DNA of 64,000 nt. Origin: Deltaproteobacteria bacterium (lineage in GTDB: Bacteria; Desulfobacterota; Desulfobacteria; Desulfobacterales; B30-G6). How positions within the stretch are numbered: position 1 is the stretch's first letter; each line of letters begins with the position of its first letter. The stretch covers positions 3,280 through 67,279 of the forward strand of contig JAJDNW010000096.1 of the NCBI GenBank assembly GCA_022340465.1, in the 5' to 3' direction. Positions 37,018 through 62,612 of the stretch are shown one piece after another. The translations under genes and the position numbers were made by a program. Under the pieces are notes generated by a model, which ran no database searches, was not told where the DNA came from, and saw only the letters and a program-made list of their open reading frames with translations.

Positions 37018-37024
37018 TTTAGAA

Positions 37025-40974: not shown

Positions 40975-41037
40975 CGCGCGGCCGTCAAACATTAACGCCA
41001 ACGTTTTAAAATTAATCAATATGAGGAGGAACCTCTA

Positions 41038-43056: not shown

Positions 43057-43126
43057 GGTCTGAACAGACTTGCCATGACGGAATTCTTAAACCTTAACAC
43101 TAAATCCTCAGCGAAGGAGGACACAT

Positions 43127-45340: not shown

Positions 45341-45395
45341 GAGTGGTCTGGAAAGAAAGGACCCACCTATACATAGACTTGGAGAAATATTACCT

Positions 45396-45442
45396 GGAGG
45401 GGCCGCCGGTCGAACGGCTGCCCCTCCGGCGGGCTCTTTTTT
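45396..45442 (+). terminator. Intra-operon GC-rich hairpin plus T-run between acsB and acsC (partial terminator / attenuator candidate)
   Basis: 'ggaggggccgcc'-loop-'ggctgcccctcc' (one mismatch), followed by 'ggcgggctctttttt'. Confidence 0.45.
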
Positions 45443-45472
45443 GAATAGCTGAAAACACATAAGGAGACAAAA

Positions 45473-46813
45473 ATGGCATTAACCGGTATTCAAATTTTCA
45501 AACTCCTGCCAAAAACCAACTGCAAGGAATGCGGTGTGCCCACGTGCCTTGCTTTTGCCATGAACCTGGCTTCGGGCAAGGCGGAGCTGGACAGTTGTCC
45601 GTACGTTTCGGACGAGGCCAAGGAGCAACTGGCCGAAGCCTCGGCACCGCCGATTCGTCCGGTAAAAATCGGTAAAGGCGTCAGAGCCTTTACCACCGGC
45701 GGTGAGACCGTTCAGTACCGTCATGAAAAAACCTTTTTCAACCCAACCGCCCTGGCGGCCATGGTCGCATCTGACATTGCGGACGCCGACCTGGAAGCCA
45801 AACTCAATGTCTGGAACGCCTTCCAGTTTGAACGGGTCGGCCTCAACTTGAGGCCCGAACTCGTCGCCCTGAAAGACGCCAACGGCGATGCCGGCGCCTT
45901 CGCGGCCAAAGCCAAAACCATCGCGGAAACATCCGAATTCAACCTGGTGCTGATGTCCGACAGCCTCGATGCCATGAAGGCCGCCGTCGAAGCCGCCGGG
46001 TTCAAGCGCCCCCTGATCTATGCCGCCACCGAGGCCAATGTCGATGATTTCGGCGCCCTGGCCAAGGATAACGATCTGCCGCTGGCGGTCAAAGCCGATT
46101 CGGTCGAAGCTCTGGTGCCATTGACGGAAAAACTGACGGAAATGGGCCTCAAGGATCTGGTGCTCGACCCCGGTTCCCGCGATGTCAAGCAGGCCCTGGA
46201 AGACCAGATCGCCATCCGGCGGGCCTCCCTCAAAAACGGCAACCGCGCCGTGGGATTCCCGACCATCACCTTCCCGTGCGAAATGGCGTCCAATCTGGAG
46301 ATGGAAACCCTTCTGGCTGGCATGTTCATCGCCAAATACGGCGGCATAGTGGCCCTGTCCGATTTCACGGGGGAAAGTCTGTTCCCGCTACTGCTTGAAC
46401 GCCTGAACATCTTCACCGACCCGCAGCGGCCCATGACCGTCACCGAAGGCATTTACGAAATCAACAACCCGGACGAAAACTCGCCCGTCCTGGTCACCAC
46501 CAACTTCGCCCTGACGTACTTCATCGTCAGCGGCGAAATCGAAGGCAGCCGCGTTCCGGCTTACCTGTTGATCAAGGACGCCGAGGGTCTTTCCGTCATG
46601 ACCGCCTGGGCGGCCGGTAAATTCGCCGGTGACGACGTGGGCATGTTCGTCAAGAAAAGCGGCATCATGGACAAGGTCAAGCATACCGAGCTTGTCATCC
46701 CCGGTTATGCAGCGGCCATCGCCGGCGATGTCGAGGAAGAGCTTCCCGGCTGGACTATTACCGTCGGTCCCAGGGAGGCGGCGCATATTTCGGGATTTCT
46801 GAAATCCAAATAA
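45473..46813 (+). CDS. acsC: Corrinoid Fe-S protein large subunit
   Basis: 446 aa. N-terminal [4Fe-4S] motif 'CKECGVPTCLAFAMNLASGKAELDSCPYV', followed by TIM-barrel and Rossmann-like B12 domains. Confidence 0.92.
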   Translation: MALTGIQIFKLLPKTNCKECGVPTCLAFAMNLASGKAELDSCPYVSDEAKEQLAEASAPPIRPVKIGKGVRAFTTGGETVQYRHEKTFFNPTALAAMVASDIADADLEAKLNVWNAFQFERVGLNLRPELVALKDANGDAGAFAAKAKTIAETSEFNLVLMSDSLDAMKAAVEAAGFKRPLIYAATEANVDDFGALAKDNDLPLAVKADSVEALVPLTEKLTEMGLKDLVLDPGSRDVKQALEDQIAIRRASLKNGNRAVGFPTITFPCEMASNLEMETLLAGMFIAKYGGIVALSDFTGESLFPLLLERLNIFTDPQRPMTVTEGIYEINNPDENSPVLVTTNFALTYFIVSGEIEGSRVPAYLLIKDAEGLSVMTAWAAGKFAGDDVGMFVKKSGIMDKVKHTELVIPGYAAAIAGDVEEELPGWTITVGPREAAHISGFLKSK

Positions 46814-46906
46814 GGATTTTCGCAATCCAACCCGGGCTGAACGATATATAGGTTTAACTGTGTCGACCATTCAGCCAAGGATCAAATTGTTTTGACGTCT
46901 AAAGAA

Positions 46907-46931
46907 CGGGGGGTATCTGGATTGCCCCCCG
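46907..46931 (+). other. 7-bp G/C stem hairpin (CGGGGGG-11 nt-CCCCCCG) in the acsC-acsE spacer
   Basis: Read directly from the sequence. There is no T-run, so this could be an RNA processing or stability element. Confidence 0.35.
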
Positions 46932-46972
46932 ATCCCTGGATTTAACCCGTCAATTAAGCGTAGGGAGGTTAT

Positions 46973-47854
46973 ATGTTACTCATCGGCGAAAGTTTAAACG
47001 TAATTTCCAAGAAGATCGGCCGCGCATTCAAGGAACGCGACCCCAAGCCGATCCAGGAGGAAGCCCTTTTTCAAAAGGAAAAAGGCATGGACTACATCGA
47101 CATCAATCTCGGGCCGGCCAAGAAAGACGGCCCCGAACTGATGCCCTGGGTGGTGGAAACCGTTCAGGAAGTCGTGGATGATGTCCCGCTGGTCCTGGAC
47201 ACCTCCAACATCGATGCCATCGCAGCGGCACTCAAGGTTTGCAAGCTGCCGCCCATCATCAACTCCATCATGGTCCGGCCCGAGCGCTATGAAAAAATGG
47301 TGCCTCTGACGGCGGAACACGGTGCAGATTTCATCGCCCTGATGTGGGGGCCCGACGGCCTGCCGCGTGATGAAAACGAACGCGCCGCCCTGTGTGTGGA
47401 ACTGCTCTATTTTGCCAACGAGGCCGGTATTCCCAATGAAAAGATCTGGGTTGACGGTATTGTCACCCCGGTCAACATCCAGCAGCCCCAGGCCATCAGC
47501 CTGATGGAGTTCCAGGGAATGATCCAGGACATCGCCCCGGGCGCCAGGAGTACCTGCGGCCTCTCCAACATCTCCAACGGTCCTCCGGACCATCTGCGGC
47601 CCATCCTCAATCAGACCTACATGGTTATGCTGCAGAAATACGGTATGGAGTCGGTCATCGCCGATCCCAGGGACGACCAGCTCATCGACATCGCCAAGGG
47701 CAATCGTCAGGACATCGTCGACCTGATTTACGGTATTATGGACGGTGAAGCCCCCGACATTGACAGCCTTTCCAAGGAACTGCAGGACTATGCCAAGACC
47801 ACCAACGTCATCCTCGGCAAAACCCTCTACTCCGATTCATGGCTGGAGATCTAA
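46973..47854 (+). CDS. acsE: Methyltetrahydrofolate:corrinoid Fe-S protein methyltransferase (pterin-binding domain)
   Basis: 293 aa. 'MLLIGESLNVISKKIG', 'YIDINLGP', 'LVLDTSN' and 'GLSNISNG' match MeTr/DHPS-like pterin-binding barrels. Confidence 0.9.
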   Translation: MLLIGESLNVISKKIGRAFKERDPKPIQEEALFQKEKGMDYIDINLGPAKKDGPELMPWVVETVQEVVDDVPLVLDTSNIDAIAAALKVCKLPPIINSIMVRPERYEKMVPLTAEHGADFIALMWGPDGLPRDENERAALCVELLYFANEAGIPNEKIWVDGIVTPVNIQQPQAISLMEFQGMIQDIAPGARSTCGLSNISNGPPDHLRPILNQTYMVMLQKYGMESVIADPRDDQLIDIAKGNRQDIVDLIYGIMDGEAPDIDSLSKELQDYAKTTNVILGKTLYSDSWLEI

Positions 47855-49512: not shown

Positions 49513-50139
49513 GTGCCCTCACCGCTTGAAAAAGCCCGTCAGGATCCCGGCTCCATGAAAGCCCGCATCCTGGCCTCCGCCAGGAAATTGTTCGGGGAAT
49601 ACGGATACAACCGTACGACCACGCGCATGATTGCCGCGGACGTGGGCATCGATATTTCCACCCTTTACTATCACTGGGGGGAAAAGCTGGATCTTTACGA
49701 AGCCCTCATCACCGATCTCAACGACGAAATCCTGGGTAAATTCGAAGAGGTCGAGAAGCAGGCCCGGGGCAAATCCCTTTCAGAACGCCTGGAAATATCT
49801 ATCGATCTTCTCACGGCCTACCTGTTCAAACACCCGGAAGTGTCCAACCTGATTCTTTTCGGCTATTTCAACAAAACCGAGCCGGGAAGCGTTCCCGACA
49901 TAAAAATAAAAATCGACGACTACACATCGGGCATCGCCGTTGCCATGGACCTTGCGAAAGACAAAGCCCATGTGGCTGTTCAGGACAAGGCCCGCATCCT
50001 GGCCGTCTGGAACTGCGTGCTCAACTTCATTTCAGGCGAAAATTTTTTCAGGCCCATCTTGAAAGTGGACCGCGAAGGCTACCGGTCGGTGGTCCGGGAA
50101 ACAGTCAAATTCATGATGGTGCCGGCGTTCACAAAATAA
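49513..50139 (+). CDS. TetR/AcrR-family transcriptional regulator
   Basis: 'ILASARKLFGEYGYNRTTTRMIAADVGIDISTLYYHWGEK' is a TetR HTH. GTG start at 49513, with an alternative ATG at 49555. Confidence 0.85.
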   Translation: MPSPLEKARQDPGSMKARILASARKLFGEYGYNRTTTRMIAADVGIDISTLYYHWGEKLDLYEALITDLNDEILGKFEEVEKQARGKSLSERLEISIDLLTAYLFKHPEVSNLILFGYFNKTEPGSVPDIKIKIDDYTSGIAVAMDLAKDKAHVAVQDKARILAVWNCVLNFISGENFFRPILKVDREGYRSVVRETVKFMMVPAFTK

Positions 50140-50251
50140 ATTTTCATGGATGGCTGAAAAAGCCATTCATGCAGTTAACAGTAGTTTCCGTACAAACTGA
50201 TCATCATCGTTCCTTTTAATCAAGAAAATTTATTTCCAAAGGAGGAATCCC

Positions 50252-52360
50252 ATGGCGTTGAATCTTGATGCTGTCGGAAAAAAAATCGGCCCTGTTTCCA
50301 AAGACTACACCTGGAAGGACGCCGTGTTGTACGCCTTAGGCGTCGGTGCCGGTTTTTCCGATCTGGAGTACTGCTACGAAAAGGACCTGAAGGTTGTCCC
50401 CAGCTTTGCCATCACCACAATTTATGATGTCATGCCCGAGGCCGTCTCGCTGACCAATGTCAACCTGGCCGGCATCCTGCACGGTGAACAGGAGATCGTC
50501 TTTCACAACCCCATACCGCCTGATGGCACCATGATCTCGGAAGGAAAGATCCTCAACTACTACGACAAAGGCAAAGACAAAGGTGCCCTGGTGGTTGCCG
50601 AGGCCGAGACAAAACACTCCAACGGCCAGAAGCTGTTCACCTCCAGCATGACCATCTTCTCACGCCTCGACGGCGGCTTTGGCGGCGAGAACCGGCCCCG
50701 GGAAAAATTCGAATTTCCGGACAGAGAGCCGGATTTCAGTGTCAATGCGTCCCCGTCCGAAAATCAGCCCCTCCTCTACCGGCTCTCCGGGGATGTCTTC
50801 CAGCTTCACGTGGATCCGGAATTTGCCAAAATGGCCGGCTTCGAAAAACCCATCATGCACGGGTTGTGCACCCATGGATATGCCTGCCGGGCATTGATCC
50901 AGAGCCTCATTCCCGGGGAACCCGAAAAAGCCCGGCGTATGTGCTGCCGCTTCTCGAGACCCCTCTATCCGGGCATGCCGCTTGCCATACAAATCTGGAA
51001 AACCGAAGAGGGCAAAGCCGTCTGGCGCGTCCAGAATATAGAGACCCAGGAGATCGTTATCGACAACGGTATTTTCGAATACGGTGACATCCCCCGGGAC
51101 GAGATCCGCTTTGACGGCCGTGTTGCCGTGGTGACCGGTGCCGGTGCGGGGTTGGGACGCGTGTATGCCCTGGAATTGGCCAAACGGGGTGCCAAGGTTG
51201 TGGTCAACGACCTGGGTGGCGCAAGGGATGGCGCGGGGGAAGGCTCCTCCAGCCCGGCCGACAAGGTTGTGGAGGAGATCAAGACCGCCGGTGGAGAGGC
51301 CGTAGCCAACTATGACAACGTGGCCACGGCGGAAGGCGGTGAAAACATCGTCAAAACCGCCCTGGATGCCTTCGGCACCGTCGACATCCTGATCAACAAC
51401 GCCGGCATCCTGAGGGACAAGAGTTTCCTCAAGATGGATCCCGAAAATTGGCAAGCCGTATTGAACGTACACCTCAACGGCGCCTACAACGTCACCCGTC
51501 CGGCGTTTGCCGTCATGAAGGAAAAGGGCTACGGACGCATCCTCATGACCACCTCGGCCGCCGGCCTCTACGGCAATTTCGGTCAGACCAACTACACGGC
51601 CGCCAAAATGGGCCTCATCGGCCTGATGAACACCCTAAAAATCGAAGGCCAGAAATACGGCATCCATGTCAACACCATCGCCCCGGTAGCCGCCTCCCGG
51701 CTGACCGAAGACGTGCTGCCGCCTGATTTTTTCGAAAAATTGAAACCGGAATTCGTGGCGCCCATTGCCCTGTATCTCTGTTCCGAGGCGTGTGATGAAA
51801 CCGGCGGTATCTACAATGCCGGCATGGGCTGTTACAACCGGGCGGCCATCGTTACCGGCCCCGGTGTGGTCGTCGGCGACGGCCAGGCCGTCCCCACCCC
51901 GGAAGAGCTTGTGGCCCAGTGGGATAAGGCCAAGAGCCTCGAGGGAGCCAAAACCTATTTTCAGCTGAACGAACAGATCGGCGACCTCATCGGCGCCCTG
52001 GCGAAACCCGCCGACGACGCCGGCGTCGCAGTGCCGGCCGAGGTCTCCGTCGCCGACATTTTCAAAGGCCTGCCCGATGCCTTCGTGCCCGAAGCGGCCG
52101 GCGGCGTGGAAGTCGTCTTCCAGTTCACCATCACGGGAGACGACGGCGGCGAATGGTACTGTGACATCAAGGACGGTGCCTGCACCATCAAATCCGGCAA
52201 GCATGCCAAACCGGTCTGCACCCTGGAAATGGGAGACAAGGATTTCGTTGCCCTGATGACCGCCAAGCTGCCGGCCATGCAGGCCTACACCTCCGGCAAG
52301 CTGAAAATCGGGGGTGACATCATGAAATCCCAGCTCATCGAAAAACTCTTCAAAATGTAA
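50252..52360 (+). CDS. Trifunctional fusion: double hot-dog MaoC (R)-hydratase, MFE-2-type SDR (3R-hydroxyacyl-CoA dehydrogenase), SCP2 sterol-carrier domain
   Basis: 702 aa. MaoC: 'LLYRLSGDVFQLHVDPEFAKMAGFEKPIMHGLCT'. SDR: 'VAVVTGAGAGLGRVYALELAKRGAKVVVNDLGG', 'INNAGILRD', 'YTAAKMG'. SCP2: 'FQFTITGDDGGEWYCDIKDG...AYTSGKLKIGGDIMKSQ'. Confidence 0.85.
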   Translation: MALNLDAVGKKIGPVSKDYTWKDAVLYALGVGAGFSDLEYCYEKDLKVVPSFAITTIYDVMPEAVSLTNVNLAGILHGEQEIVFHNPIPPDGTMISEGKILNYYDKGKDKGALVVAEAETKHSNGQKLFTSSMTIFSRLDGGFGGENRPREKFEFPDREPDFSVNASPSENQPLLYRLSGDVFQLHVDPEFAKMAGFEKPIMHGLCTHGYACRALIQSLIPGEPEKARRMCCRFSRPLYPGMPLAIQIWKTEEGKAVWRVQNIETQEIVIDNGIFEYGDIPRDEIRFDGRVAVVTGAGAGLGRVYALELAKRGAKVVVNDLGGARDGAGEGSSSPADKVVEEIKTAGGEAVANYDNVATAEGGENIVKTALDAFGTVDILINNAGILRDKSFLKMDPENWQAVLNVHLNGAYNVTRPAFAVMKEKGYGRILMTTSAAGLYGNFGQTNYTAAKMGLIGLMNTLKIEGQKYGIHVNTIAPVAASRLTEDVLPPDFFEKLKPEFVAPIALYLCSEACDETGGIYNAGMGCYNRAAIVTGPGVVVGDGQAVPTPEELVAQWDKAKSLEGAKTYFQLNEQIGDLIGALAKPADDAGVAVPAEVSVADIFKGLPDAFVPEAAGGVEVVFQFTITGDDGGEWYCDIKDGACTIKSGKHAKPVCTLEMGDKDFVALMTAKLPAMQAYTSGKLKIGGDIMKSQLIEKLFKM

Positions 52361-52387: not shown

Positions 52388-52452
52388 CGGCTTCCGTCTT
52401 CGCTCTGCAAGCTACGCCGGACAAGACACCGAACCAAGCCGCCGCTATAAAA
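52388..52452. repeat. Conserved ~50-65 nt non-coding element (copy 1), 3-prime of the first SCP2 fusion gene
   Basis: 'cggcttccgtcttcgctctgcaagctacgccggacaag...gccgctataaa' is near-identical to 55351-55403 apart from a 15-nt indel. Confidence 0.75.
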
Positions 52453-52520: not shown

Positions 52521-52562
52521 CAAACACACGAAACAATCTTTGTGACCTTTGTGCCTTTGTGG
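52521..52562 (+). repeat. 5-prime-UTR element: three tandem CCTTTGTG octamers preceded by a partly complementary ACACACGAAACAA tract
   Basis: 'caaacacacgaaacaa tc tttgtgacctttgtgcctttgtgg', 20 nt upstream of the AAGGAGG ribosome-binding site of the next gene. Confidence 0.55.
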
Positions 52563-52596
52563 TTCGAACGTATACAGAATAAGGAGGAATCACACG

Positions 52597-55323
52597 ATGA
52601 TTGGAATTACTTCATACGGCGCATACATCCCCCGCCTGAGACTGGACAGGATGTCCATTTTTCAATCCATGGGCTGGTTCGCACCGGCCATCATGATGGT
52701 TGCACAAGGGGAGCGCTCCATGTGCAACTGGGACGAAGACACGATCACCATGGCCGTGGCCGCATCGAGAGACTGCCTGAAGGGCGTCGACAAATCCGCC
52801 ATAGACGGCCTCTACCTGGCGTCGACCACCCTGCCCTTTGCCGACCGGCAGAACGCCGGCATCGTCTCCGCGGCCCTGAATCTGGGGAGCCGGCTCATCA
52901 CCTCGGACTTCTCCGCCTCGCAAAAGGCCGGCAGCACGGCGCTGATCACGGCCCTGGAATCGGTCAAGAGCGGCGAGCGCAAGAACGTGCTGGTAACGGC
53001 TTCCGACAGGCGCGAAACCAAGACCGCCTATTTCTACGAGATGTGGTTCGGCGATGGCGCCGGAGCCTTCACGGTGGGCGCCGAAAACGTCATTGCCGAA
53101 TACAAGGGGTCCTTTTCCGTGTCCCACGACTTCGTGGACCACTACCGCGGCGCGCGGAAGGCCGTCGACTACATGTGGGAGGAACGCTGGACCAGGGATG
53201 CCGGTTATGCCCTCATCATCCCCGAAGCGGTCAACGGACTGCTGGAAAAACTCGCTATGTCCATGGACGACGTGGACAAACTGGTCTACCCGTGCTTTTT
53301 CAAGGGCGACCACAAGAAGATTGCCGCCAAACTGGGAGCGGCCGATAAGCTAGTGGACAACCTGCACGACGTGTGCGGCGAGTGCGGTGTGGCCCACCCC
53401 TTCCTGATGATGATGTCGGCCCTGGAAACCGCCAAGCCCGGCGACAATATCCTCATGGCCGGTTTCGGCCAGGGCTGCAACGCCATGCTTTTCACCGCGA
53501 CCGACAACATTGCCGCGCTGCCTCCCCGCAACGGGTTCCAGGGAACGCTGGCCAACAAGAAAACCGTTTCCAACTACGAAAAATGGCTGAAATTCAGGGA
53601 TCTGATCCAGACCGAGATGGGCATTCGCGCCGAAGCCCCCACCCAGACCGCTACCACCGTTTTGTGGCGCAAGAACAAGATGATCCTGGGACTGGTGGGC
53701 GGAAAATGCCGTGAATGCGGCACGCTGCAATTCCCCAAACATGACATCTGTGTCAACCCCACGTGCGGGGCCGTCCACAGCCAGGATGATCATGAATTCG
53801 CCGATGAACCGGCCGTGGTTAAAACCTTCACCGGCGACATGCTGTCCGTTTCCGTGGACCCGCCGGCCATCTACGGCATGGTGCAGTTCGAGAACGGCGG
53901 CCGGCTGATGGCCGACTTCACCGATTGTGAACTCGACGACATGAAGGTGGGCCTGCCCGTCAAGATGGAGTTCAAACGCAAGGGGGTGGACGTCGAACGA
54001 GGGTTCACCAACTATTTCTGGAAAGCGGTCCCCGTACCCGGGGCTGCCGCCGCTGCCGACCGGATAACTTTCGACGGCCGCGTCGCCGTCATTACCGGCG
54101 CCGGTGCCGGCCTGGGCCGGGTGTACGCCCTGGAGCTGGCCAAGCGCGGTGCCAAAATCGTCGTTAACGACCTGGGCGGCGCCCGGGACGGCTCGGGAGA
54201 AGGCTCTGCCAGTCCGGCCGACAATGTCGTGGCCGAAATCAGGGAACTGGGCGGAGAAGCCGTTGCCAACTACGACAATGTCGCCACCCCCGAAGGCGGC
54301 GAGGCCATCATCCGGTCCGCCGTGGACGCCTTCGGCGGCGTGGACATCGTGATCAACAACGCCGGCATCCTGAGGGACAAGAGCTTCCTAAAGATGGACC
54401 CCGAAAACTGGGCCACCGTCCTCGCGGTTCACCTGAACGGTGCCTATCACGTCACCCGGCCGGCCATGCAGATCATGAAGGAAAAGGGCTATGGCCGCAT
54501 CGTCATGACCACCTCGGCCGCCGGACTCTACGGCAACTTCGGCCAGACCAACTACTCGGCGGCCAAGATGGGCCTGGTCGGCCTGATGAACACCATCAAG
54601 CTGGAGGGCGCCAAATACAACATCAAGGTCAACACCATTGCACCCATCGCGGCTTCCAGGCTCACGGAGGACGTCATGCCGCCGGACCTTTTCGAAAAAT
54701 CCAAACCCGAATTCGTGGCCCCCATGGTTATCCGCCTGGCCAGCGAGGCCTGTGAGGAGACGGGTGCCATTTTCAACGTCGGTATGGGCTACTTCAACCG
54801 GGCCGCCGTACACACCGGTCCGGGCGTGCAGCTGGGAGACCAGGACAACATCCCCACCCCGGAAGACATACGGGACAACTGGGAGGCGATCAACTCGCTC
54901 AAAGGCGCCAGGGAGATGGCGGATGCCAATGACGCCATCTTCGCTCTTATCGCTCCGCCCAAGGAAGAAGCGGCCGCAGAAGATGCCGCTGCTGCCGGCG
55001 ACCTGGACGTCAAGACCTTCTTCGAAGAGAAGATGCCGGCAACCTTCAAAGCCGATGCCGCCGATGGCGTGGACGTGGTCTTTCAGTTCATCATTTCCGG
55101 AAGCGGGGGGGGCGATTGGCACTGTGTGGTCAAGGACAACACCTGCACCATTCAGGCCGGGAAGCACGGAGCTCCCACGTGTACGCTCAAAATGGGCGAC
55201 GGCGATTTCCTGAGCATGATGACCGGTAAACTGCCTGCCATGCAGGCCTTCACGTCCGGGAAGCTGCAGATCGAAGGTGATATTATGAAGTCACAGCTGA
55301 TTGAAAAGCTGTTCACCATATAA
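52597..55323 (+). CDS. Tetra-domain fusion: HMG-CoA-synthase-like thiolase-fold domain (catalytic residues apparently absent), DUF35 Zn-ribbon/OB fold, MFE-2-type SDR, SCP2
   Basis: ATG at 52597, 10 nt after AAGGAGG. N-terminus 'MIGITSYGAYIPRLRLDR' and 'NWDEDTITMAV' are archaeal-HMGCS-like. 'GGKCRECGTLQFPKHDICVNPTCG' is the DUF35 ribbon. The SDR and SCP2 domains are about 75-80% identical to those of the upstream gene. Confidence 0.8.
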   Translation: MIGITSYGAYIPRLRLDRMSIFQSMGWFAPAIMMVAQGERSMCNWDEDTITMAVAASRDCLKGVDKSAIDGLYLASTTLPFADRQNAGIVSAALNLGSRLITSDFSASQKAGSTALITALESVKSGERKNVLVTASDRRETKTAYFYEMWFGDGAGAFTVGAENVIAEYKGSFSVSHDFVDHYRGARKAVDYMWEERWTRDAGYALIIPEAVNGLLEKLAMSMDDVDKLVYPCFFKGDHKKIAAKLGAADKLVDNLHDVCGECGVAHPFLMMMSALETAKPGDNILMAGFGQGCNAMLFTATDNIAALPPRNGFQGTLANKKTVSNYEKWLKFRDLIQTEMGIRAEAPTQTATTVLWRKNKMILGLVGGKCRECGTLQFPKHDICVNPTCGAVHSQDDHEFADEPAVVKTFTGDMLSVSVDPPAIYGMVQFENGGRLMADFTDCELDDMKVGLPVKMEFKRKGVDVERGFTNYFWKAVPVPGAAAAADRITFDGRVAVITGAGAGLGRVYALELAKRGAKIVVNDLGGARDGSGEGSASPADNVVAEIRELGGEAVANYDNVATPEGGEAIIRSAVDAFGGVDIVINNAGILRDKSFLKMDPENWATVLAVHLNGAYHVTRPAMQIMKEKGYGRIVMTTSAAGLYGNFGQTNYSAAKMGLVGLMNTIKLEGAKYNIKVNTIAPIAASRLTEDVMPPDLFEKSKPEFVAPMVIRLASEACEETGAIFNVGMGYFNRAAVHTGPGVQLGDQDNIPTPEDIRDNWEAINSLKGAREMADANDAIFALIAPPKEEAAAEDAAAAGDLDVKTFFEEKMPATFKADAADGVDVVFQFIISGSGGGDWHCVVKDNTCTIQAGKHGAPTCTLKMGDGDFLSMMTGKLPAMQAFTSGKLQIEGDIMKSQLIEKLFTI

Positions 55324-55350: not shown

Positions 55351-55403
55351 CGGCTTCCGTCTTCGCTCTTCGAGCTACGCCGAGACAAGTCGCCGCTATA
55401 AAG
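55351..55403. repeat. Conserved non-coding element (copy 2), 3-prime of the second SCP2 fusion gene
   Basis: 'cggcttccgtcttcgctcttcgagctacgccgagacaagtcgccgctataaa'. See 52388-52452. Confidence 0.75.
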
Positions 55404-55449: not shown

Positions 55450-55497
55450 CACGAAGGCAAAGAGGCTGCTTAACATTGTGCTCTTTGTGTCTTTGTG
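55450..55497 (+). repeat. 5-prime-UTR imperfect hairpin with a CTTTGTG-repeat arm, upstream of the thiolase gene
   Basis: 'cacgaaggcaaagag' ... 'ctctttgtgtctttgtg'. Several pairs are G-T, which would be G-U wobble only in a plus-strand transcript. Confidence 0.55.
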
Positions 55498-55532
55498 GTT
55501 CCGTTTAATCCTGATTTAGAAGGAGGCATATA

Positions 55533-56741
55533 ATGGCCACTGGAATTAAAGATAAAGTAGCAATTATCGGTATGGGATGCACCCGCTTTGGGGAACGCTG
55601 GGATGTCGGATCCGAGGAACTCATGGTGGAGGCCTTTCAGGAGTGCCTGGAGGATGCCGGTATAGAAAAAAACGACATCGAGGCGGCCTGGTTCGGCTGC
55701 TGCCTGGACGAAGTCAACGTGGGCAAAAGCGCCCTGCCCCTTTCACTGACCCTGCGGTTGCCCTTGATTCCCGTCACCCGGGTGGAAAACTTCTGTGCCA
55801 CCGGCACCGAGGCTTTCAGGGGGGCTGTTTACGCGGTCGCATCCGGCGCCTACGATATCTGCCTCGCCCTGGGCGCCGAGAAACTCAAGGACACGGGCTA
55901 CGGGGGGCTGCCCAGCTTTACCGGGTCCAACGCGGGCACATTGACCTGGCAGTGGTTCCCCAACCTGACCGCGCCGGGCTCCTTCGCCCAGCTGGCCAGC
56001 GCCTACGCCGCCAAGTACAGGGTTCCGGATCAGGACCTCAAACGGGCCATGGCCCACGTGTCGGCCAAGAGCCACGCCAACGGCGCCCTCAATCCCAAGG
56101 CCCATTTGAGAAAAAAGGTGACCGAAGATCAGGTAATGGCGGCCCCCATCATCGCCCATCCCCTGGGGCTCTTCGACTGCTGCGGGGTGAGCGACGGTGC
56201 GGCCTGTGCCATCGTGACCACGCCTGAAATAGCCCAAAAGATGGGCAAAAAGGATTTCGTTAGCGTAAAGGCCCTGCAGCTGGCATTGAGCAGCGGCGAA
56301 GAAATGGGGTACAACGAGTGGGACGGCGACCACTTCATGACCACCAGCAAGTGCAGCCGGATGGCTTACAAGGAAGCCGGCATCGACAACCCGCGCGAGG
56401 AGATCAGCATGATGGAGGTTCACGACTGCTTCTCCATCACCGAACTGGTGACCTATGAAGACCTGCACATTTCCGAAAGGGGCCGGGCGGTCAAGGACAT
56501 CATGGACGGGTTTTACGACCGGGACGGCCAGGTTCCCTGCCAGGTGGACGGCGGCCTCAAGTGTTTCGGCCACCCCATCGGGGCATCCGGCCTGCGCATG
56601 CTTTACGAAATGTACCTGCAGCTGCACGGCCGGGCCGGCGACCGACAGATCGACAATCCGACCTACGGCCTGACGCACAACCTGGGCGGATTCCCGGCCA
56701 TGAACGTGTGCAGCATATCCATCATCGGCAAATACAATTGA
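55533..56741 (+). CDS. SCP2-type (SCPx/archaeal-like) thiolase
   Basis: 402 aa. Nucleophile region 'VENFCATGTEAF'. The diagnostic 'EVHDCF' loop of SCP2-thiolases. 'CFGHPIGASGLRM' and 'THNLGG'. Confidence 0.9.
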   Translation: MATGIKDKVAIIGMGCTRFGERWDVGSEELMVEAFQECLEDAGIEKNDIEAAWFGCCLDEVNVGKSALPLSLTLRLPLIPVTRVENFCATGTEAFRGAVYAVASGAYDICLALGAEKLKDTGYGGLPSFTGSNAGTLTWQWFPNLTAPGSFAQLASAYAAKYRVPDQDLKRAMAHVSAKSHANGALNPKAHLRKKVTEDQVMAAPIIAHPLGLFDCCGVSDGAACAIVTTPEIAQKMGKKDFVSVKALQLALSSGEEMGYNEWDGDHFMTTSKCSRMAYKEAGIDNPREEISMMEVHDCFSITELVTYEDLHISERGRAVKDIMDGFYDRDGQVPCQVDGGLKCFGHPIGASGLRMLYEMYLQLHGRAGDRQIDNPTYGLTHNLGGFPAMNVCSISIIGKYN

Positions 56742-56796
56742 TACAAAGACCGGTATCAATTGCATTTGTGAACGCGACTGCGCCGCTAATAAACTA

Positions 56797-56883
56797 GGAT
56801 TCGAGGGTTAAAGGGCTCGAGTGAATTAAATGATTTGCTAATTAAATAGGTTTCACTCGGCCCCTGGATCCCTCGAACCCTTT
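56797..56883. repeat. Imperfect ~29-bp inverted repeat (CTCGAR-CCCT word family) flanking a 26-nt AT-rich loop, between the thiolase and ACAD genes
   Basis: Left arm 'ggattcgagggttaaagggctcgagtgaa'. Right arm 'ttcactcggcccctggatccctcgaaccc', about 24/29 complementary. The loop contains a direct 'aattaaat' x2. Confidence 0.65.
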
Positions 56884-56910: not shown

Positions 56911-58053
56911 ATGCAAATACTGAACTTCACGCCTGAACACGACGCCTTCCGGAAACGGCTGCGGGAATTTATCGCCCAAGAAATCACGCCCAACGTCGAG
57001 CAGTGGGAAAAGGACGGAATCGAGCCCAAGGAGATCTGGCGCAAGATGGGCCGGGGGGGATTTCTCTGCACGGACGTAAAAGAGGCCTACGGGGGCATTG
57101 GCGGGGACTTTCTCTACTCCGTCATCGTCACCGAAGAGATCTCCTACACCTTCCACACGGGTCTGGCCGCGGCGCTTCACTCGGATGTCGTGGTGCCCTA
57201 CATCAGCTCTTTCGGTACGGAAGCGCAGAAACAACAATACCTGCCGGGATGCGTGAGTGGAGATATTGTCACTGCGATCGCCATGACCGAACCCGGGGCC
57301 GGCAGCGATCTGGCCGGCCTGGCCACCACCGCCGAAGAGGAGGGCGGCGAGGTCGTCATCAACGGTTCCAAAACCTTTATTTCCAACGGTATCAATGCCG
57401 ACCTCGTGATTGTGGCCGCCAGGGATCCGGCCGTGGAAAACCCCTACCAGGCGCTGTCGCTTTACATCGTCGAAAACGGTACGCCCGGCTTCGAACGCGG
57501 CCGGCATCTGGACAAAATGGGCTGGCGCAGCCAGGACACGGCGGAGCTGTTTTTTTCCAAGTGCAGAATCCCCGTGACAAACCGCCTCGGTGAAAAAGGG
57601 CAGGGTTTCCTCATGCTCATGCAGAAACTCCAGCAGGAAAGGCTGGTGACCGCCGTGGGGGCTGTCACGGCGGCCGAACGCATCGTGGAGTGGATCACCC
57701 GCTTCTGCAAGGAGACCCAGGTGTCCGGTAAACCGATCTCCAAGTCGCAGGCCGCCCAGTTCGCGCTGGTCGAAATGGCTGCCGATGTCAAACTGGGCAG
57801 AACTTTTATGGAGAAGCTGGTGGCCGACCACATGGAAGGAAGCGACATCATCATCGAGACCTCCATGGCTAAATTCTGGACGACGGAGATGGTCAGAAGG
57901 GTCGCCGACCGCGCCATGGACCTGCTGGGCAACGAGGCCACCGTGGAAAAGTACCCCGTGACCCGCGCCTGGCGCGATGTCCGCGTAATGTCTATCTTTG
58001 CCGGAACCAACGAGGTGATGCGGGGGATCGCCGCCAAGTTCATGGGACTCTGA
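56911..58053 (+). CDS. Acyl-CoA dehydrogenase, IVD/LCAD-type placement of the catalytic base
   Basis: 380 aa with a typical ACAD fold ('AMTEPGAGSDLAG', 'INGSKTFISNG'). The C-terminus reads 'IFAGTNEV' (Ala where MCAD-type enzymes have Glu), while 'KLQQERLV' supplies a Glu at the isovaleryl-CoA-dehydrogenase position. Confidence 0.9.
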   Translation: MQILNFTPEHDAFRKRLREFIAQEITPNVEQWEKDGIEPKEIWRKMGRGGFLCTDVKEAYGGIGGDFLYSVIVTEEISYTFHTGLAAALHSDVVVPYISSFGTEAQKQQYLPGCVSGDIVTAIAMTEPGAGSDLAGLATTAEEEGGEVVINGSKTFISNGINADLVIVAARDPAVENPYQALSLYIVENGTPGFERGRHLDKMGWRSQDTAELFFSKCRIPVTNRLGEKGQGFLMLMQKLQQERLVTAVGAVTAAERIVEWITRFCKETQVSGKPISKSQAAQFALVEMAADVKLGRTFMEKLVADHMEGSDIIIETSMAKFWTTEMVRRVADRAMDLLGNEATVEKYPVTRAWRDVRVMSIFAGTNEVMRGIAAKFMGL

Positions 58054-58251: not shown

Positions 58252-59748
58252 ATGGACTACGACGTCATTGTCATCGGAGCGGGAAACGGGGGCCTGACCG
58301 CGTCAGCAACCCTGGCTCGCAAGGGGCGGAAGGTGCTGCTGCTGGAACGGCACAACATCCCCGGAGGATGCGCCACCAGCTTCTGCCGGGGGCGTTTCGA
58401 ATTCGAGATCGCCCTGCACCAGCTCAGCGGATTGGGGACTCCTGAAAAGCCCGGCCCGCTGCGCATGACCCTGGACGGTCTCGGCATTATGGATGACCTC
58501 ACGTTCGTCGAAATCTCGGATCTGTACAGTGTCTGCATGCCGGACGGTTTTCATGCCGCTCTCAAGCCCGACAAAGGCCAGGTCGTAAGCGAACTCAAGG
58601 CGAAATTCCCCCACGAAAAAGAAGGCATCGACGGTTTTTTCGATCTCGTGTACAAGTACGCCGGCGATATGATCGGGGCCTTCATTTTTCGCGACCCGGA
58701 GCCTTCCCGGGAAAAATACCCCCACCTGTACCGCTATGCCTTAAAAAATGCCAAGGCGGTCATCGACGACTTTTTCAAGGATCCGCTCCTGAAGGCCGTC
58801 ATATCGGTATACTGGGGATATCTGGGTCTTTCCACCGACCAGCTTTCTTTTGCCTACCTGGCCATGGTCCTTTTCCAGTACATCGAGTTCAAGCCCTTTC
58901 ACGTCAAGGGCGGCTCCCAGGCGTTGTCCAATGCCATTCTGAATGTGTTCCTGAAAGCCGGCGGGGATGTCCGCTTCAACTGCGGGGCGAAGCGCATTCT
59001 CACCGAAAACAACCGGATAATAGGCGTCGCCACCGACGACGGCGATACCGTGGAAGCGCCGTATGTGGTCTCGAACATCTCCCCGGTGGTCACCTACTCC
59101 GAGCTGATCGGCAAAGACCTGATCCCAGCCAAGACCCTGCAAAAGATGCACAGCAGAAGCTTGAGCAACTCGGCCTTTACCATGTTCATCGGATTCGACT
59201 GCGAGCCCGACGTGCTGAACATCGAGGAGTCCACCAATTTCCTGATGGCCTCCACGGATATCTCACGATCGCTCCATGACCGCATGCAGAGCGTCGACAT
59301 CACGGACGAATTGCTGGTACTGAGCTGCTACGATATTTCCGACCCCACTTTTTCCCCGCCGGGAACCTGCCAGGCCAACCTCGTGACGCTAAAATACGGC
59401 GAACCCTGGCTGAACATTCCCCCGGGCCGATACCATGACGTAAAGTTCCGCTGCGCAGAATCGATGCTGAAACGGGCCGAGGCAATCTTTCCCGGCCTGC
59501 GGCCCCACATCGAAGAGATCGATGTGGGCACGCCGCTCACCCACATGCGCTACCTCGGTCACCCGGCGGGCGCGGTATACGGTTTCGAGCACCGCACCAA
59601 AGACTCCATGTTTTTTCAGCCCGGCCGCAACTCACCGGTTGAGGGTCTCTCCTTTGCCGGCAGCTGGGTCGGCGACGGGGGCTTCGAGCCTACTTTGCGC
59701 TCCGGAGTGGCCGCCGCCAAATCTATTTTACGCAAAAGCGGCGGTTGA
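58252..59748 (+). CDS. CrtI/RetSat-family FAD-dependent oxidoreductase (phytoene-desaturase-like; possible C=C saturase or desaturase)
   Basis: 498 aa. 'YDVIVIGAGNGGLTASATLARKGRKVLLLERHNIPGGCATSF' is a dinucleotide fold of the COG1233 type. C-terminal 'FAGSWVGDGGF'. Confidence 0.8.
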   Translation: MDYDVIVIGAGNGGLTASATLARKGRKVLLLERHNIPGGCATSFCRGRFEFEIALHQLSGLGTPEKPGPLRMTLDGLGIMDDLTFVEISDLYSVCMPDGFHAALKPDKGQVVSELKAKFPHEKEGIDGFFDLVYKYAGDMIGAFIFRDPEPSREKYPHLYRYALKNAKAVIDDFFKDPLLKAVISVYWGYLGLSTDQLSFAYLAMVLFQYIEFKPFHVKGGSQALSNAILNVFLKAGGDVRFNCGAKRILTENNRIIGVATDDGDTVEAPYVVSNISPVVTYSELIGKDLIPAKTLQKMHSRSLSNSAFTMFIGFDCEPDVLNIEESTNFLMASTDISRSLHDRMQSVDITDELLVLSCYDISDPTFSPPGTCQANLVTLKYGEPWLNIPPGRYHDVKFRCAESMLKRAEAIFPGLRPHIEEIDVGTPLTHMRYLGHPAGAVYGFEHRTKDSMFFQPGRNSPVEGLSFAGSWVGDGGFEPTLRSGVAAAKSILRKSGG

Positions 59749-59940: not shown

Positions 59941-61101
59941 ATGATGAGAAAAGGCATCTGGCAGGAATTCGACGGGTACGAGGAAATTGCCGGGGAGATC
60001 GAAAACAGCCTCTGGGCCGCCGGGGAGCGCTCTTTTGACAAGGTGCTGGCCGCCCGTTATATCCAGCGGCTCCACCCGCGGCAATTGAAACTCAGGGTAG
60101 TGGATGTCATCCAAGAAACGCCCTCGACCAGGACCCTGCGTCTTACCCCGGTCGATGCGGCCCTGCCGCCGTTTCTTGCCGGCCAGTACATCCCGCTGTA
60201 CCTCACCATCGGCGGCATCCGCACCAGCCGGCCCTACAGCATCTCGTCCCAGCCAAGGCAGACCGGGTTTTACGACATCACGGTGCGTCGCGTCCCCGAT
60301 GGACTGGCATCGAACTATCTCATGGATGACGTCAAGATCGGCAATCTGCTCGAAAGCGCCGGCCCCCAGGGCAATTTTTACTTCAACCCCCTCTTCCATG
60401 ACGACCACATGGTGTGTATCGCCGGCGGCAGCGGTATTACGCCCTTCATGAGCATGATCCGTGAAATCGTGGAGTGCGGGCTGGACAGGACCGTTACCCT
60501 CCTCTACGGCAACCGGCAATTGGACGACGTCATCTTTCACGACGAGCTAGAACGCATCGCCGCGCGGTTCGACAACATCACCTACATACCGGTGATCGAA
60601 AAACCGGCCGAGGGCTACCGGGGTGCCTGCGGATATATCAACGCCGCGCTGCTCAAAGAAATGCTTGGCGACCTGCAGGGTAAAACATTCTTTCTCTGCG
60701 GGCCGCAGGGCCTGTACGACTTCTGCCTGCCTGAGCTCGAAAGCCTGGGGATTGAAAGGCGCAAGATCAGAAAGGAGATGTACGGACCGCCCGGCGACAT
60801 ATGTTCATATCCGGGGTGGCCGGAAGAGATCGCTGCCGAAGACCGCTTTACGGTGACGCTCAAGGACGGTCGGACCGTCAGCGCCAGGGCGGGCGTCCCC
60901 CTGCTCGTCTCCCTGGAGAAGAAAGGCATCGTGCCGTCTTCCATCTGCCGGTCCGGTGAATGCAGCATGTGCCGGGTCAAGGTTCTTTCCGGCAAGGTGT
61001 TCCAGCCCGCCGGTACCCCGGTGCGCAGGTCGGACACCCGGTACGGGTACGTGCATTCGTGCGTTTCGTATCCGCTCGAAGATTTGGAGATAATGATCTG
61101 A
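59941..61101 (+). CDS. Ferredoxin-NAD(P)+ reductase-like flavoprotein with a C-terminal plant-type 2Fe-2S ferredoxin domain
   Basis: 386 aa. FAD motif 'RPYSISS'. NAD motif 'IAGGSGITPF'. 2Fe-2S motif 'CRSGECSMCRVKV...HSC'. GGGAGGG ribosome-binding site upstream. Confidence 0.85.
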   Translation: MMRKGIWQEFDGYEEIAGEIENSLWAAGERSFDKVLAARYIQRLHPRQLKLRVVDVIQETPSTRTLRLTPVDAALPPFLAGQYIPLYLTIGGIRTSRPYSISSQPRQTGFYDITVRRVPDGLASNYLMDDVKIGNLLESAGPQGNFYFNPLFHDDHMVCIAGGSGITPFMSMIREIVECGLDRTVTLLYGNRQLDDVIFHDELERIAARFDNITYIPVIEKPAEGYRGACGYINAALLKEMLGDLQGKTFFLCGPQGLYDFCLPELESLGIERRKIRKEMYGPPGDICSYPGWPEEIAAEDRFTVTLKDGRTVSARAGVPLLVSLEKKGIVPSSICRSGECSMCRVKVLSGKVFQPAGTPVRRSDTRYGYVHSCVSYPLEDLEIMI

Positions 61102-61102
61102 A

Positions 61103-61462
61103 TCAAGAAGTATTATTGGAATGCTCCCTGATGATCTTTGGCAATTCAATCGTTTTGGTCTTATCTATTACTGTCGGTTCCGGATTATACAAGCGCAACG
61201 TAATTTTCAAAGGCCCTTTTCCCCTGTCAAGGGGAAGCCAATTTCCATTCTGCTTTTCATTGGATATCCGTATGACCCAACTGCCGTCTTTTTCATAGGC
61301 AATATTTGTTTCTGAAAACGAATAACGCTTCAGAGGGTTTGCTATCCAATAATTACCCGGGTATATGGTTATGTTCCACCACCTTGTGTTAAGATCCCCT
61401 TTCCCGGTAATTTTATAGGTGCAGTTGTCTTCGAGGATCTTTCCTTCTGAATCTTCAGGCAA
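61103..61462 (-). CDS. DUF1214-domain fragment protein (short; possibly a remnant)
   Basis: 119 aa. 'WWNITIYPGNYWIANPLKRYSFSETNIAYEKDGSWVIRIS...NWLPLDRGKGPLKITLRLYNPE' matches the DUF1214 C-terminal pattern. Low GC. Overlaps the upstream gene by 8 bp. Confidence 0.55.
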   Translation of the reverse strand: MPEDSEGKILEDNCTYKITGKGDLNTRWWNITIYPGNYWIANPLKRYSFSETNIAYEKDGSWVIRISNEKQNGNWLPLDRGKGPLKITLRLYNPEPTVIDKTKTIELPKIIREHSNNTS

Positions 61463-62543
61463 CGATCAATTTTCTATCCGGCAATAATTCCCGCAATACA
61501 AATTGCCGGTGGATGGACGCGGCCTGATAGAAACGGTAGAGATGCGATCTTAAGGCCGCCTTTGAATTTTCGGTACTGTTCATATCCGCGGACTGTTTCA
61601 TCCATAATTCGGGCTTGTACAACGGTATATCGAAGGCATTTTTTCCGATTTTACCCTGCTTTGCTTCTTTCCGCCACCTGGCGATCCGGTCTTCCTTTTT
61701 TGCCTGGTACGTGAGAATGGCGGTGATCTGCTTTTCAATGCTGGAAAACGAAACGCCGCTTCCATCGGAAAGCTTGGTATTGTTCTCTGCAAATTGGGCA
61801 AACATGGCGTGCAGCGCACGGCACCCGTTGAGAAAGTGCGCTGGATTGTCCCGCTCGATACGCAATTTTTTGGGATATTCGTATTTGAAGCTCCATTTTA
61901 AATAGGGCCGGTCAGGGTACGTGGCCACCGCCCCGTGTCCCAGGGCGCCCGAAACGGTTTCCGCAAGCCAGGATTTGATGTTGGCAATAAAACCGCCCCC
62001 TTTCCCGTACCGACGGAAAAAATCCTTTTCCTTTCCTTTAATGTAGTCGGCAATGTCCGGATCCAGCCCTTTATCGAATTTGAAACTGTCATTATCCACC
62101 TTGTTGCGGCGGGAACCGACACCGGAAAACCCGAAATGCGAAAATGTATCTGCGTATACATGCGCTGCGATACCGATCAAGTAGATGCCCACACCCTGTT
62201 TTGCATAGCCGAGATGATGCTGCACCATCTCTTTTGCAACCCTGCTGTCTGCCCGGCACAACAGCCGTTCTGAAAAGGCGCTGCCTTCATTTCCGGGAAG
62301 AAAGTGAAACGGCACCCAGACCTGACGCTGGTCTTCAGGATCCCGATTTGCGATGAGATCGGATACGTGGTGAGCGGTCGCCTGGGAATCGACTCTGCCG
62401 CCATCCTGAAACTCGATGTGAGTTCCAGCGGCATTGTCGTCCACATATTGTGAAGCGAGGGCGATGGTTTTACATACTGCCGGTTTCAGCCCTGCCGTTC
62501 TGGCCAACGCATACGTTCCATAATAATGCATATCGATTTGCAT
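61455..62543 (-). CDS. Hypothetical His-rich protein (possible metal-dependent hydrolase fold)
   Basis: The ATG at 62543 is preceded by AAGGAGGG. The N-terminus 'MQIDMHYYGTYALARTAG', together with 'HHVSD', 'VPFHFLP' and 'AAHVYADTFSHFGFSG', suggests His/Asp metal ligands. No family is assigned. Confidence 0.6.
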   Translation of the reverse strand: MQIDMHYYGTYALARTAGLKPAVCKTIALASQYVDDNAAGTHIEFQDGGRVDSQATAHHVSDLIANRDPEDQRQVWVPFHFLPGNEGSAFSERLLCRADSRVAKEMVQHHLGYAKQGVGIYLIGIAAHVYADTFSHFGFSGVGSRRNKVDNDSFKFDKGLDPDIADYIKGKEKDFFRRYGKGGGFIANIKSWLAETVSGALGHGAVATYPDRPYLKWSFKYEYPKKLRIERDNPAHFLNGCRALHAMFAQFAENNTKLSDGSGVSFSSIEKQITAILTYQAKKEDRIARWRKEAKQGKIGKNAFDIPLYKPELWMKQSADMNSTENSKAALRSHLYRFYQAASIHRQFVLRELLPDRKLIVA

Positions 62544-62612
62544 GGTACCCTCCTTTGGAGGTTTCCTCTTTATTATGGGTATAATTGGAATATGAACGAG
62601 CAAGAGTTGGGT

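Follow-up and report, generated by a model that had tools for sequence, protein, structure and literature searches.

Inactive HMG-CoA synthase-like subunits and the locus analyzed here

In archaea, a thiolase, a 3-hydroxy-3-methylglutaryl-CoA (HMG-CoA) synthase (HMGS; HMGCS for the archaeal enzyme) and a DUF35 protein form an anabolic complex of the mevalonate pathway (Protein Data Bank, PDB, entry 6esq), in which the uphill condensation by the thiolase is pulled by the HMGS reaction via a shared CoA site. The archaeal HMGCS is active and carries the tetrad E82, C114, H238 and N270; its quadruple mutant E82C/C114G/H238Q/N270D was inactive (PMC12960953). PhlA, the HMGS-like subunit of PhlACB, was called a thiolase-superfamily member without activity already in 2010, when DUF35 fusions to thiolase-superfamily, short-chain dehydrogenase/reductase (SDR)-like, SCP2 and hot-dog domains were also noted (PMC2954200). 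PhlA lacks both Cys and Glu, and PhlC is the sole catalytic subunit of the complex (PMC6392133). Liao et al. (2026, Nat Commun) reported that the E-C-H-N tetrad is absent from MucA and PhlA and that, of 1,030 HMGS-ACAT-DUF35 loci in bacteria, 1,001 are found outside biosynthetic clusters (PMC12960953). In Pseudomonas fluorescens (Pf), a fused HMGS-DUF35 protein without the tetrad, together with an ACAT that holds the Cys, HDxF and GHx motifs, cleaved acetoacetyl-CoA, formed no HMG-CoA and did not condense acetyl-CoA (PMC12960953). DUF35 has a docking role in steroid catabolism, where it brings the enzyme that acts one step earlier onto a thiolase-fold enzyme that cleaves C-C bonds (PMC12329534). 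Here, we analyzed a stretch of 64,000 nucleotides (nt) of contig JAJDNW010000096.1 (positions 3,280 to 67,279, assembly GCA_022340465.1; hereafter the window) from a Deltaproteobacteria metagenome-assembled genome (MAG). A gene at 52597-55323 (+ strand) of this window encodes a 908-amino-acid (aa) protein, deposited as MCG6911280.1 ("SDR family NAD(P)-dependent oxidoreductase"), in which an HMGS-like domain is fused to DUF35, to a dehydrogenase and to SCP2.

Judged by its sequence, the HMGS-like domain lacks the Glu-Cys-His-Asn tetrad and should be unable to make HMG-CoA. Together with DUF35, it probably has no catalytic part of its own and serves as a platform on which the thiolase of the next gene docks and which tethers the preceding dehydrogenase, in the fatty-acid breakdown of sulfate-reducing bacteria. 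With PhlA, MucA and the Pf fusion as precedents, the core of this finding has already been described. Thus, the novelty implied by an earlier note on this DNA, which had pointed out the dead domain from the sequence alone, was overstated, since such domains are known from PhlA (2018), MucA and the Pf HMGS-DUF35 fusion (2026). The dead-domain phenomenon is known, but the four-domain form of Desulfobacterales and its operon are uncharacterized.

The ATG at 52597 was taken as the biologically sensible start of the long open reading frame (ORF); the ribosome-binding site AAGGAGG (52581-52587, + strand), read directly from the sequence, lies 9 nt upstream. Pfam places five elements in the protein, the first two being the N and C halves of a KAS-III/HMGS-type thiolase fold (aa 1 to ~345), followed by a ChsH2-type zinc ribbon (366-392) with the DUF35 OB fold (to ~480), a short-chain dehydrogenase core (495-684) and SCP2 (819-906). 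On the DNA, all on the + strand, the HMGS-like thiolase-fold domain without catalytic residues (aa 1-345) spans 52597-53631, on the evidence of phmmer searches against the PDB, tetrad mapping, AlphaFold2 (AF2) modeling with Foldseek, and NCBIfam. A linker (aa 346-365, 53632-53691), in which low model confidence at aa 340-350 gives way to a short helix, leads to the DUF35 module (aa 366-480, 53692-54036), a rubredoxin-like zinc ribbon and then an OB fold (Pfam zf-ChsH2 and OB_ChsH2_C). The SDR domain, of the MFE-2-type (3R)-3-hydroxyacyl-CoA dehydrogenases, occupies aa 493-745 (54073-54831; Pfam adh_short, 6.3e-42). An Ala/Glu-rich linker (54832-55050) precedes the SCP2 sterol/lipid-carrier domain (aa 819-908, with the stop codon 55051-55323; Pfam SCP2, 9.4e-17). 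The earlier note had correctly named the HMGS-like domain and its covalent fusion to DUF35 (aa 366-480), but overlooked the MFE-2-type dehydrogenase and the SCP2 extension. It is this extension that forms the less-described, uncharacterized aspect of the protein, and no description of the four-domain protein was found in the literature searched, a collection that is incomplete.

The Pf ACAT/HMGS-DUF35 complex shares with this locus the joining of HMGS and DUF35 in one polypeptide, the absence of the tetrad, an adjacent thiolase with Cys, HDxF and GHx, and a position outside polyketide synthase (PKS) and nonribosomal peptide synthetase (NRPS) clusters. However, compared by its published description, the Pf protein has ~480 aa, whereas the fusion here is extended to 908 aa by the MFE-2-type dehydrogenase and SCP2. 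Moreover, the Pf complex was considered by its authors an "evolutionary intermediate" without a defined pathway, whereas a full beta-oxidation operon is conserved here across Desulfobacterales. The closest solved relatives by sequence are PhlA (5m3k, 5mg5), MucA (9vbo, 9vbt) and the 9skh ATase, which are inactive HMGS-like subunits without Glu and Cys and are associated, as here, with DUF35 and a thiolase-fold catalytic subunit. In contrast to the fusion here, the subunits of PhlACB and MucABC are separate polypeptides, and the tetrad positions hold C/G/Q/D in PhlA and MucA and T/Q/P/E here. Of the structures matched, the archaeal complex 6esq was the nearest to the N-terminal domain; in the PDB searches, it ranked first for the DUF35 part and second for the thiolase. 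We propose the same coupling logic for the locus studied here. However, the HMGS site appears dead, and the partner of the thiolase would be a dehydrogenase acting before thiolysis instead of an HMGS.

Three further systems share parts of this arrangement. In ChsH1-ChsH2(DUF35)-Ltp2 and Shy(DUF35)-Sal, the enzyme that acts one step earlier carries DUF35 as a fusion, as here, and the context likewise comprises an (R)-type hydratase and SCP2-thiolase-like proteins. These systems have no HMGS-like subunit, however, and their fused partner is a MaoC hydratase and not an SDR; their thiolase-like protein lacks the nucleophilic Cys (Tyr/Tyr or Tyr/Cys) and is a retro-aldolase, whereas the thiolase here is canonical. 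The benzoylsuccinyl-CoA thiolase BbsAB (7pxp) also combines a DUF35 zinc finger with an SCP2-type HDxF thiolase in an anaerobic, beta-oxidation-like pathway, but has neither an HMGS-like subunit nor a dehydrogenase fusion. Finally, peroxisomal MFE-2 (HSD17B4; yeast Fox2, 2et6) and SCPx bring together the same dehydrogenase, hydratase-2 and SCP2 families with an SCP2-type thiolase, and yeast MFE-2 also has duplicated dehydrogenase modules. The eukaryotic proteins differ in domain order and partners, lack DUF35 and an HMGS-like scaffold, and, in SCPx, carry the SCP2 domain on the thiolase itself.

The HMGS-like domain keeps the fold and has lost the catalytic tetrad

Among PDB chains, the N-terminal domain matched the PhlA-type chain 9skh_A (1.4e-36), PhlA 5m3k_A (3.3e-30) and the archaeal HMGCS 6esq_I (5.6e-22) in phmmer searches. 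By these sequence matches, the domain is nearer to PhlA-type proteins than to true HMGCS. Three reference chains, including 6esq_I, were rebuilt from the phmmer alignments, and their numbering was checked against the published catalytic residues. In the rebuilt Mt HMGCS, positions 82, 114, 238 and 270 were indeed E, C, H and N, and positions 83 and 115 of PhlA were C and G, in agreement with the publication. Alignment with MAFFT placed Thr77 (codon 52825-52827) at E82, Gln109 (52921-52923) at C114, Pro232 (53290-53292) at H238 and Glu262 (53380-53382) at N270. The alignment anchors that flank each of these positions on both sides are conserved.

We then considered the fold. An AF2 model of aa 1-480, built from an alignment of 51 sequences from two clades, reached a mean predicted local distance difference test score (pLDDT) of 86.5 and a predicted template modeling score (pTM) of 0.90. 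With Foldseek, it superposed on 6esq_I/J with a template modeling score (TM) of 0.91 and 2.0 Å over ~350 columns, on PhlA-type chains with TM of 0.87-0.88 and on MucA with TM of 0.86-0.89. The values of a shallower model (27 sequences, all at least 66% identical; pLDDT 66, Foldseek root mean square deviation ~7 Å) were discarded. The modeled domain thus has an intact fold, and the alignment is, on this model, no artifact. The curated NCBIfam cutoffs for HMGCS were not reached (NF003274, 184.8 bits versus 244; TIGR00748, 121.7 versus 353.35). The ancestor of the domain was the HMG-CoA synthase subunit of the HMGS/thiolase/DUF35 complex.

The earlier note had aligned the start of the protein with archaeal HMGCS and had reported the loss of Glu, Cys and His. 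The peptides that it quoted are all present (IGITSYGAYIPRLRL at aa 2-16, NWDEDTITMAV at 44-54, ASTTLPF at 75-81, SDFSASQKAGSTAL at 103-116, rightly assigned to nt 52903-52935, and LVYPCFFKG at 229-237), and its three losses agree with the MAFFT mapping, in which the fourth residue, Asn, is also replaced. Its view of a thiolase-fold domain that has become catalytically dead is therefore borne out as far as sequence and model can tell, with the tetrad replaced and the fold kept.

The loss is family wide

HMMER, run exhaustively over 1.84 billion cluster representatives, returned 3,021 relatives (E up to 1e-3), 571 of them below 1e-30, so that at least ~570 sequence clusters at 50% identity are strongly related (E up to 1e-30). 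Most relatives are HMGS-like-DUF35 fusions of 465-490 aa. For a closer view, 125 representatives with at least 440 residues, one per 50%-identity cluster, were taken among the matches listed. At the three corresponding catalytic positions, Glu, Cys and His are absent from all 125. Thr takes the place of the former Glu in 106 of them, and the former Cys position is most often Leu (62), Gln (18) or Arg (9), with Met, Ala, Thr, Pro and Val as further variants. At the former His position we counted Pro in 47, Tyr in 29 and Ala in 19, and at the former Asn position Asp in 40 and Asn in 35. The residues that are conserved throughout the family are mostly common to true HMGCS (Mt numbering: G5, P14, R17, D49-E50-D51, P85, D109, K115, E153, R191, R203, G269, G299, G301 and Y337). 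A retained framework around a former nucleophile site that is variable and often hydrophobic argues for a structural or binding role and not for new conserved chemistry.

A second scan covered one genome per GTDB species and gave 364 relatives. The best 80 of them are almost all Desulfobacterales and include Desulfosarcina alkanivorans PL12 and D. widdelii PP31. The four-domain form of ~909 aa was present in 60 of 68 complete orthologous genes, the others being truncated or without SCP2. At the tetrad positions, the 68 Desulfobacterales orthologues have T in all 68, Q in 66 and L in 2, P in all 68, and E in 67 and D in 1. Mean column identity was 0.82 for the HMGS-like domain, 0.84 for DUF35, 0.86 for the SDR and 0.74 for SCP2. 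The dead domain thus matches the catalytic SDR in conservation and is therefore under purifying selection.

Cys233, His257, Cys260, Glu262 and His267, near the old pocket, are invariant in 27 close homologues. The first four of these are kept only to ~55-60% identity and vary in more distant relatives. We therefore dropped the idea that the five residues form a hidden, alternative catalytic set across the family, as they are conserved only in a close sub-clade.

In databases, relatives without the tetrad are widely labeled "hydroxymethylglutaryl-CoA synthase" (JGI and some NCBI entries), and the four-domain form is labeled merely "SDR family oxidoreductase". Pathway reconstruction is misled by either name, and this widespread misannotation could wrongly suggest a mevalonate pathway in sediment MAGs.

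The partner thiolase, DUF35 and the SDR keep their motifs

The next gene (55533-56741, + strand) encodes a 402-aa thiolase of the archaeal/SCP2 type, identified by NCBIfam NF004810 (709 bits versus a cutoff of 403), PDB matches and motifs. Its PDB matches were 7yvy (4.5e-56), 6esq_A (1.1e-53) and BbsB 7pxp_C (1.5e-41), besides other SCP2-type thiolases, and it is much less like PhlC (5.6e-21). The catalytic residues are Cys88 (55794-55796), His297-Asp-Cys299-Phe (56421-56432) and Gly346-His347-Pro, so that the thiolase is predicted to be active, as the earlier note had assumed. The Cys, HDxF and GHx motifs are kept in 59/59 thiolase orthologues, and the thiolase is the next gene in 60 of 62 loci.

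In the DUF35 module, the zinc-ribbon residues Cys371, Cys374, Cys385 and Cys390 are 88-94% conserved in the 125 representatives. Its top PDB match was 6esq_E (3.2e-11), which is the archaeal complex's DUF35 subunit, followed by PhlB (2.3e-5). Thus, the matches of the HMGS-like domain, DUF35 and the thiolase fall, as best or near-best, in the same solved complexes (6esq chains I/E/A, 5m3k A/B/C and 9skh A/E/I). An equivalent assembly is suggested mainly by this one-to-one correspondence of all three modules with the three subunits of the same complexes.

The SDR domain matched 2et6 (4.7e-131), rat 1gz6 (2.3e-95) and human 1zbq (1.4e-94), and its motifs are intact (TGAGAGLG at 500, NNAG at 587 and Tyr653-x3-Lys657), which identifies it, by sequence, as an MFE-2-type (3R)-3-hydroxyacyl-CoA dehydrogenase. 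The linker between DUF35 and the SDR has only ~10 residues.

The fusion gene belongs to a conserved beta-oxidation operon

The gene order TetR, hydratase-2(N+MaoC)-SDR-SCP2, four-domain gene, thiolase and acyl-CoA dehydrogenase is conserved. In the window, all on the + strand, a TetR-family regulator (49513-50139; Pfam TetR_N), conserved in most loci, heads the cluster. It is followed by an MFE-2-like protein of 702 aa (50252-52360; Pfam and BLASTP) that joins a hydratase-2 (N domain and MaoC) to an SDR and an SCP2 domain; this upstream hydratase-2 gene is present in 64/65 loci. Downstream of the thiolase lies the conserved gene of a 380-aa acyl-CoA dehydrogenase (56911-58053; Pfam Acyl-CoA_dh N, M and C), the enzyme of the first beta-oxidation step.

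The SDR-SCP2 modules of the two adjacent genes (51101-52360 and 54061-55323) are paralogous and 68% identical over 420 aa. SDR-SDR heterodimers that bridge the hydratase-2 protein and the four-domain protein are a possibility. The pair resembles yeast MFE-2 with its duplicated A/B dehydrogenases, and 2et6 was matched in two stretches.

In Desulfobacterales, the inactive HMGS-DUF35, as a putative scaffold, thus belongs to a core catabolic operon and is deeply conserved in it; the dehydrogenase of the preceding step and a lipid-carrier domain have there been drawn into the same polypeptide. This would give a physiological context, (R)-specific beta-oxidation, to the 1,001 non-biosynthetic HMGS/ACAT/DUF35 loci, so far an orphan class.

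A proposed docking platform for the last two steps of beta-oxidation, and its alternatives

We consider it likely that the HMGS-like domain and DUF35 dock the thiolase and hold the dehydrogenase next to it. By analogy with PhlACB, MucABC and the archaeal and Pf complexes, HMGS-like-DUF35 would bind the thiolase dimer encoded by the next gene, possibly with the interfacial CoA-binding chamber preserved, and the assembly would perform thiolysis like the Pf complex. As the dehydrogenase is on the same chain, 3-ketoacyl-CoA would be made beside the thiolase, and the last two steps of beta-oxidation would be held together. The NAD+-dependent oxidation of 3-hydroxyacyl-CoA is thermodynamically unfavorable, and thiolysis is favorable. 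Co-localization of the uphill oxidation and the downhill thiolysis would therefore pull the pathway, which would benefit energy-limited anaerobes. SCP2 may hold the hydrophobic acyl chain, and the acyl-CoA dehydrogenase and hydratase-2 of the operon would complete an (R)-specific, MFE-2/SCPx-like set of beta-oxidation enzymes. This set, together with the two SCP2 domains, suggests long-chain or 2-methyl-branched acyl-CoAs as substrates. The scaffold or substrate-channel role, which was one of two options in the earlier note, is thus the best-supported reading, and the coupling of uphill dehydrogenation to downhill thiolysis offers a testable rationale for it and a candidate channeling assembly.

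Several points weigh against this role. The complex, its stoichiometry and its activity are putative here, and the dead HMGS subunit of characterized systems may be just an "evolutionary vestige" needed for assembly (PMC12960953). That substrates are channeled between SDR and thiolase is purely inferred, and direct channeling was judged unlikely for Shy-Sal (PMC12329534). The close sub-clade keeps the polar pocket residues Cys233, His257, Cys260, Glu262 and His267, which could have an extra ligand-binding or catalytic role. In principle, (R)-specific enzymes and a thiolase could also run in the synthetic direction.

A bolder extension of the docking role is tentative, and we hold it to be rather less probable than not by a wide margin. 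It supposes that the four-domain protein, the thiolase and the hydratase-2-SDR-SCP2 paralogue form a beta-oxidation metabolon on a fossil mevalonate-pathway scaffold, possibly via SDR heterodimerization. The dead HMGS domain would keep the archaeal complex's interfacial CoA chamber; in this retained chamber, the substrate would remain anchored by its CoA end, and the acyl end would swing from the tethered dehydrogenase to the thiolase, a mirror image of the archaeal channeling from thiolase to HMGS. If true, such a metabolon would enable sulfate reducers, which are limited in energy, to drive the uphill NAD-linked oxidation through the thiolysis that follows at once.

The second option of the earlier note was an active site repurposed as in Ltp2, and an unlikely form of it is that the pocket of the sub-clade, with Cys233, His257, Cys260, Glu262 and His267, has acquired new chemistry or ligand binding in the manner of Ltp2/Sal. 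The invariance of these residues in the 27 close homologues, the near invariance of T77, Q109, P232 and E262 in the 68 orthologues and a domain conservation as high as that of the catalytic SDR are in its favor. However, a conservation of at least 97% is reached by ~42% of all columns when the orthologues are aligned, so that four out of four such positions correspond only to p ~0.03. Moreover, the sub-clade residues are variable below ~55-60% identity, and the former nucleophile position, mostly Leu across the family, varies over the 125 members, as do the other positions. The dead subunits PhlA, MucA and Pf HMGS-DUF35 showed no activity (PMC6392133, PMC12960953). Finally, the rewiring in Ltp2/Sal sits in the thiolase-like partner and not in an HMGS-like protein (PMC12329534), whereas the partner here is a canonical thiolase.

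It is about equally improbable that the complex runs biosynthetically, with condensation by the thiolase and immediate reduction by the (R)-specific SDR, as in reverse beta-oxidation or the synthesis of polyhydroxyalkanoate (PHA)-like precursors. A tethered reductase would indeed pull the condensation, mirroring the archaeal logic, and the closest matches of the thiolase, 7yvy and 6esq_A, are archaeal acetoacetyl-CoA thiolases of biosynthesis. The (R)-specific dehydrogenase and hydratase-2 also share the stereochemistry of PhaB and PhaJ. However, the acyl-CoA dehydrogenase and TetR regulator of the operon are typical of catabolic fad-like clusters, the operon has no PHA synthase or reductive enoyl-CoA reductase, and the host is a complete oxidizer with a carbon monoxide dehydrogenase/acetyl-CoA synthase (CODH/ACS) cluster next door. 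The Pf complex, moreover, cleaved acetoacetyl-CoA and did not condense acetyl-CoA (PMC12960953).

Although the top sequence matches of the N-terminal domain in the PDB are the PhlA-type acylase subunits 9skh and 5m3k, a Friedel-Crafts C-acyltransferase of secondary metabolism of the PhlACB/MucABC type, CoA-independent or acetyl-CoA-dependent, is very improbable. PhlC and MucB, which perform Friedel-Crafts C-acylation in antibiotic biosynthesis, have lost HDxF, whereas the thiolase here keeps HDCF and is far closer to 6esq_A (1.1e-53) than to PhlC (5.6e-21); no PKS or NRPS is nearby, and the context is beta-oxidation. A genuine HMG-CoA synthase with catalytic residues elsewhere, as the database names of many relatives would have it, is hardly credible given the conserved anchors and verified reference numbering, the superposition at 2.0 Å over ~350 columns, the absence of Glu, Cys and His at the corresponding positions in all 125 fusion-family representatives, the missed curated cutoffs and the inactive archaeal quadruple mutant (PMC12960953), all of which speak against an alignment artifact.

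Intergenic elements and neighboring genes

Scans for promoter and terminator consensus sequences across the operon performed no better than on shuffled sequences. Two repeats were found between its genes. A 32-nt element follows both genes that end in SCP2 (52388-52419 and 55351-55382), with 30/32 positions identical; the two mismatched positions were wildcards in the search pattern. A CTTTGTG-repeat element lies at 52547-52565 and 55483-55501, with 18/19 positions identical. Both are absent from the rest of the window, where no copy is expected by chance. An 18-nt core is present in three copies in the closest relative, after the hydratase, fusion and thiolase genes, and in no other locus. 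In protein, the modules encoded upstream of the repeats are only 68% identical. The repeats may be a lineage-specific element of the repetitive extragenic palindromic (REP)-like or mRNA-processing kind, or the trace of a gene conversion.

We also noted a perfect 11-bp stem, CATGGATGGCT/AGCCATTCATG, just after the TetR gene (50145-50171; region z = -3.3), and a long imperfect hairpin between the thiolase and acyl-CoA dehydrogenase genes (~56796-56881; region z = -3.6). The remaining gaps of the operon (~200 nt each) were no more structured than shuffled sequences. These hairpins could be terminators, operators or processing sites.

Downstream of the operon lie the genes of a CrtI/carotenoid-isomerase-like flavoprotein (58252-59748, + strand), which is below all curated cutoffs, and of an FNR-like FAD/NAD/2Fe-2S reductase (59941-61101, + strand). 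Both follow the operon only in closer relatives (~20 loci). They may provide an auxiliary double-bond isomerase or saturase system, and their membership of the system is uncertain.

A complete CODH/ACS (Wood-Ljungdahl) cluster is located directly upstream (35056-47854). It holds an acetyl-CoA hydrolase/transferase-GNAT fusion (35056-37017), RACo (37001-39004), CdhD-like proteins, the CODH catalytic subunit, the ACS beta subunit and a pterin-binding protein. This neighbor fits a complete-oxidizing sulfate reducer as host.

Farther away, a 1,459-aa protein (3735-8114) combines two BcrAD/BadFG-type ATPase modules with DUF2229 ("CoA enzyme activase"), an activase-like fusion of the kind tied to 2-hydroxyacyl-CoA dehydratase or benzoyl-CoA-reductase-type radical enzymes. 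Two putative ORFs on the - strand, 20474-21898 (474 aa) and 33329-34921 (530 aa), match no Pfam family at E up to 1e-5. The sole Pfam match of a third protein encoded on the - strand, of 382 aa (61455-62603), is DUF6765 (4.7e-96).

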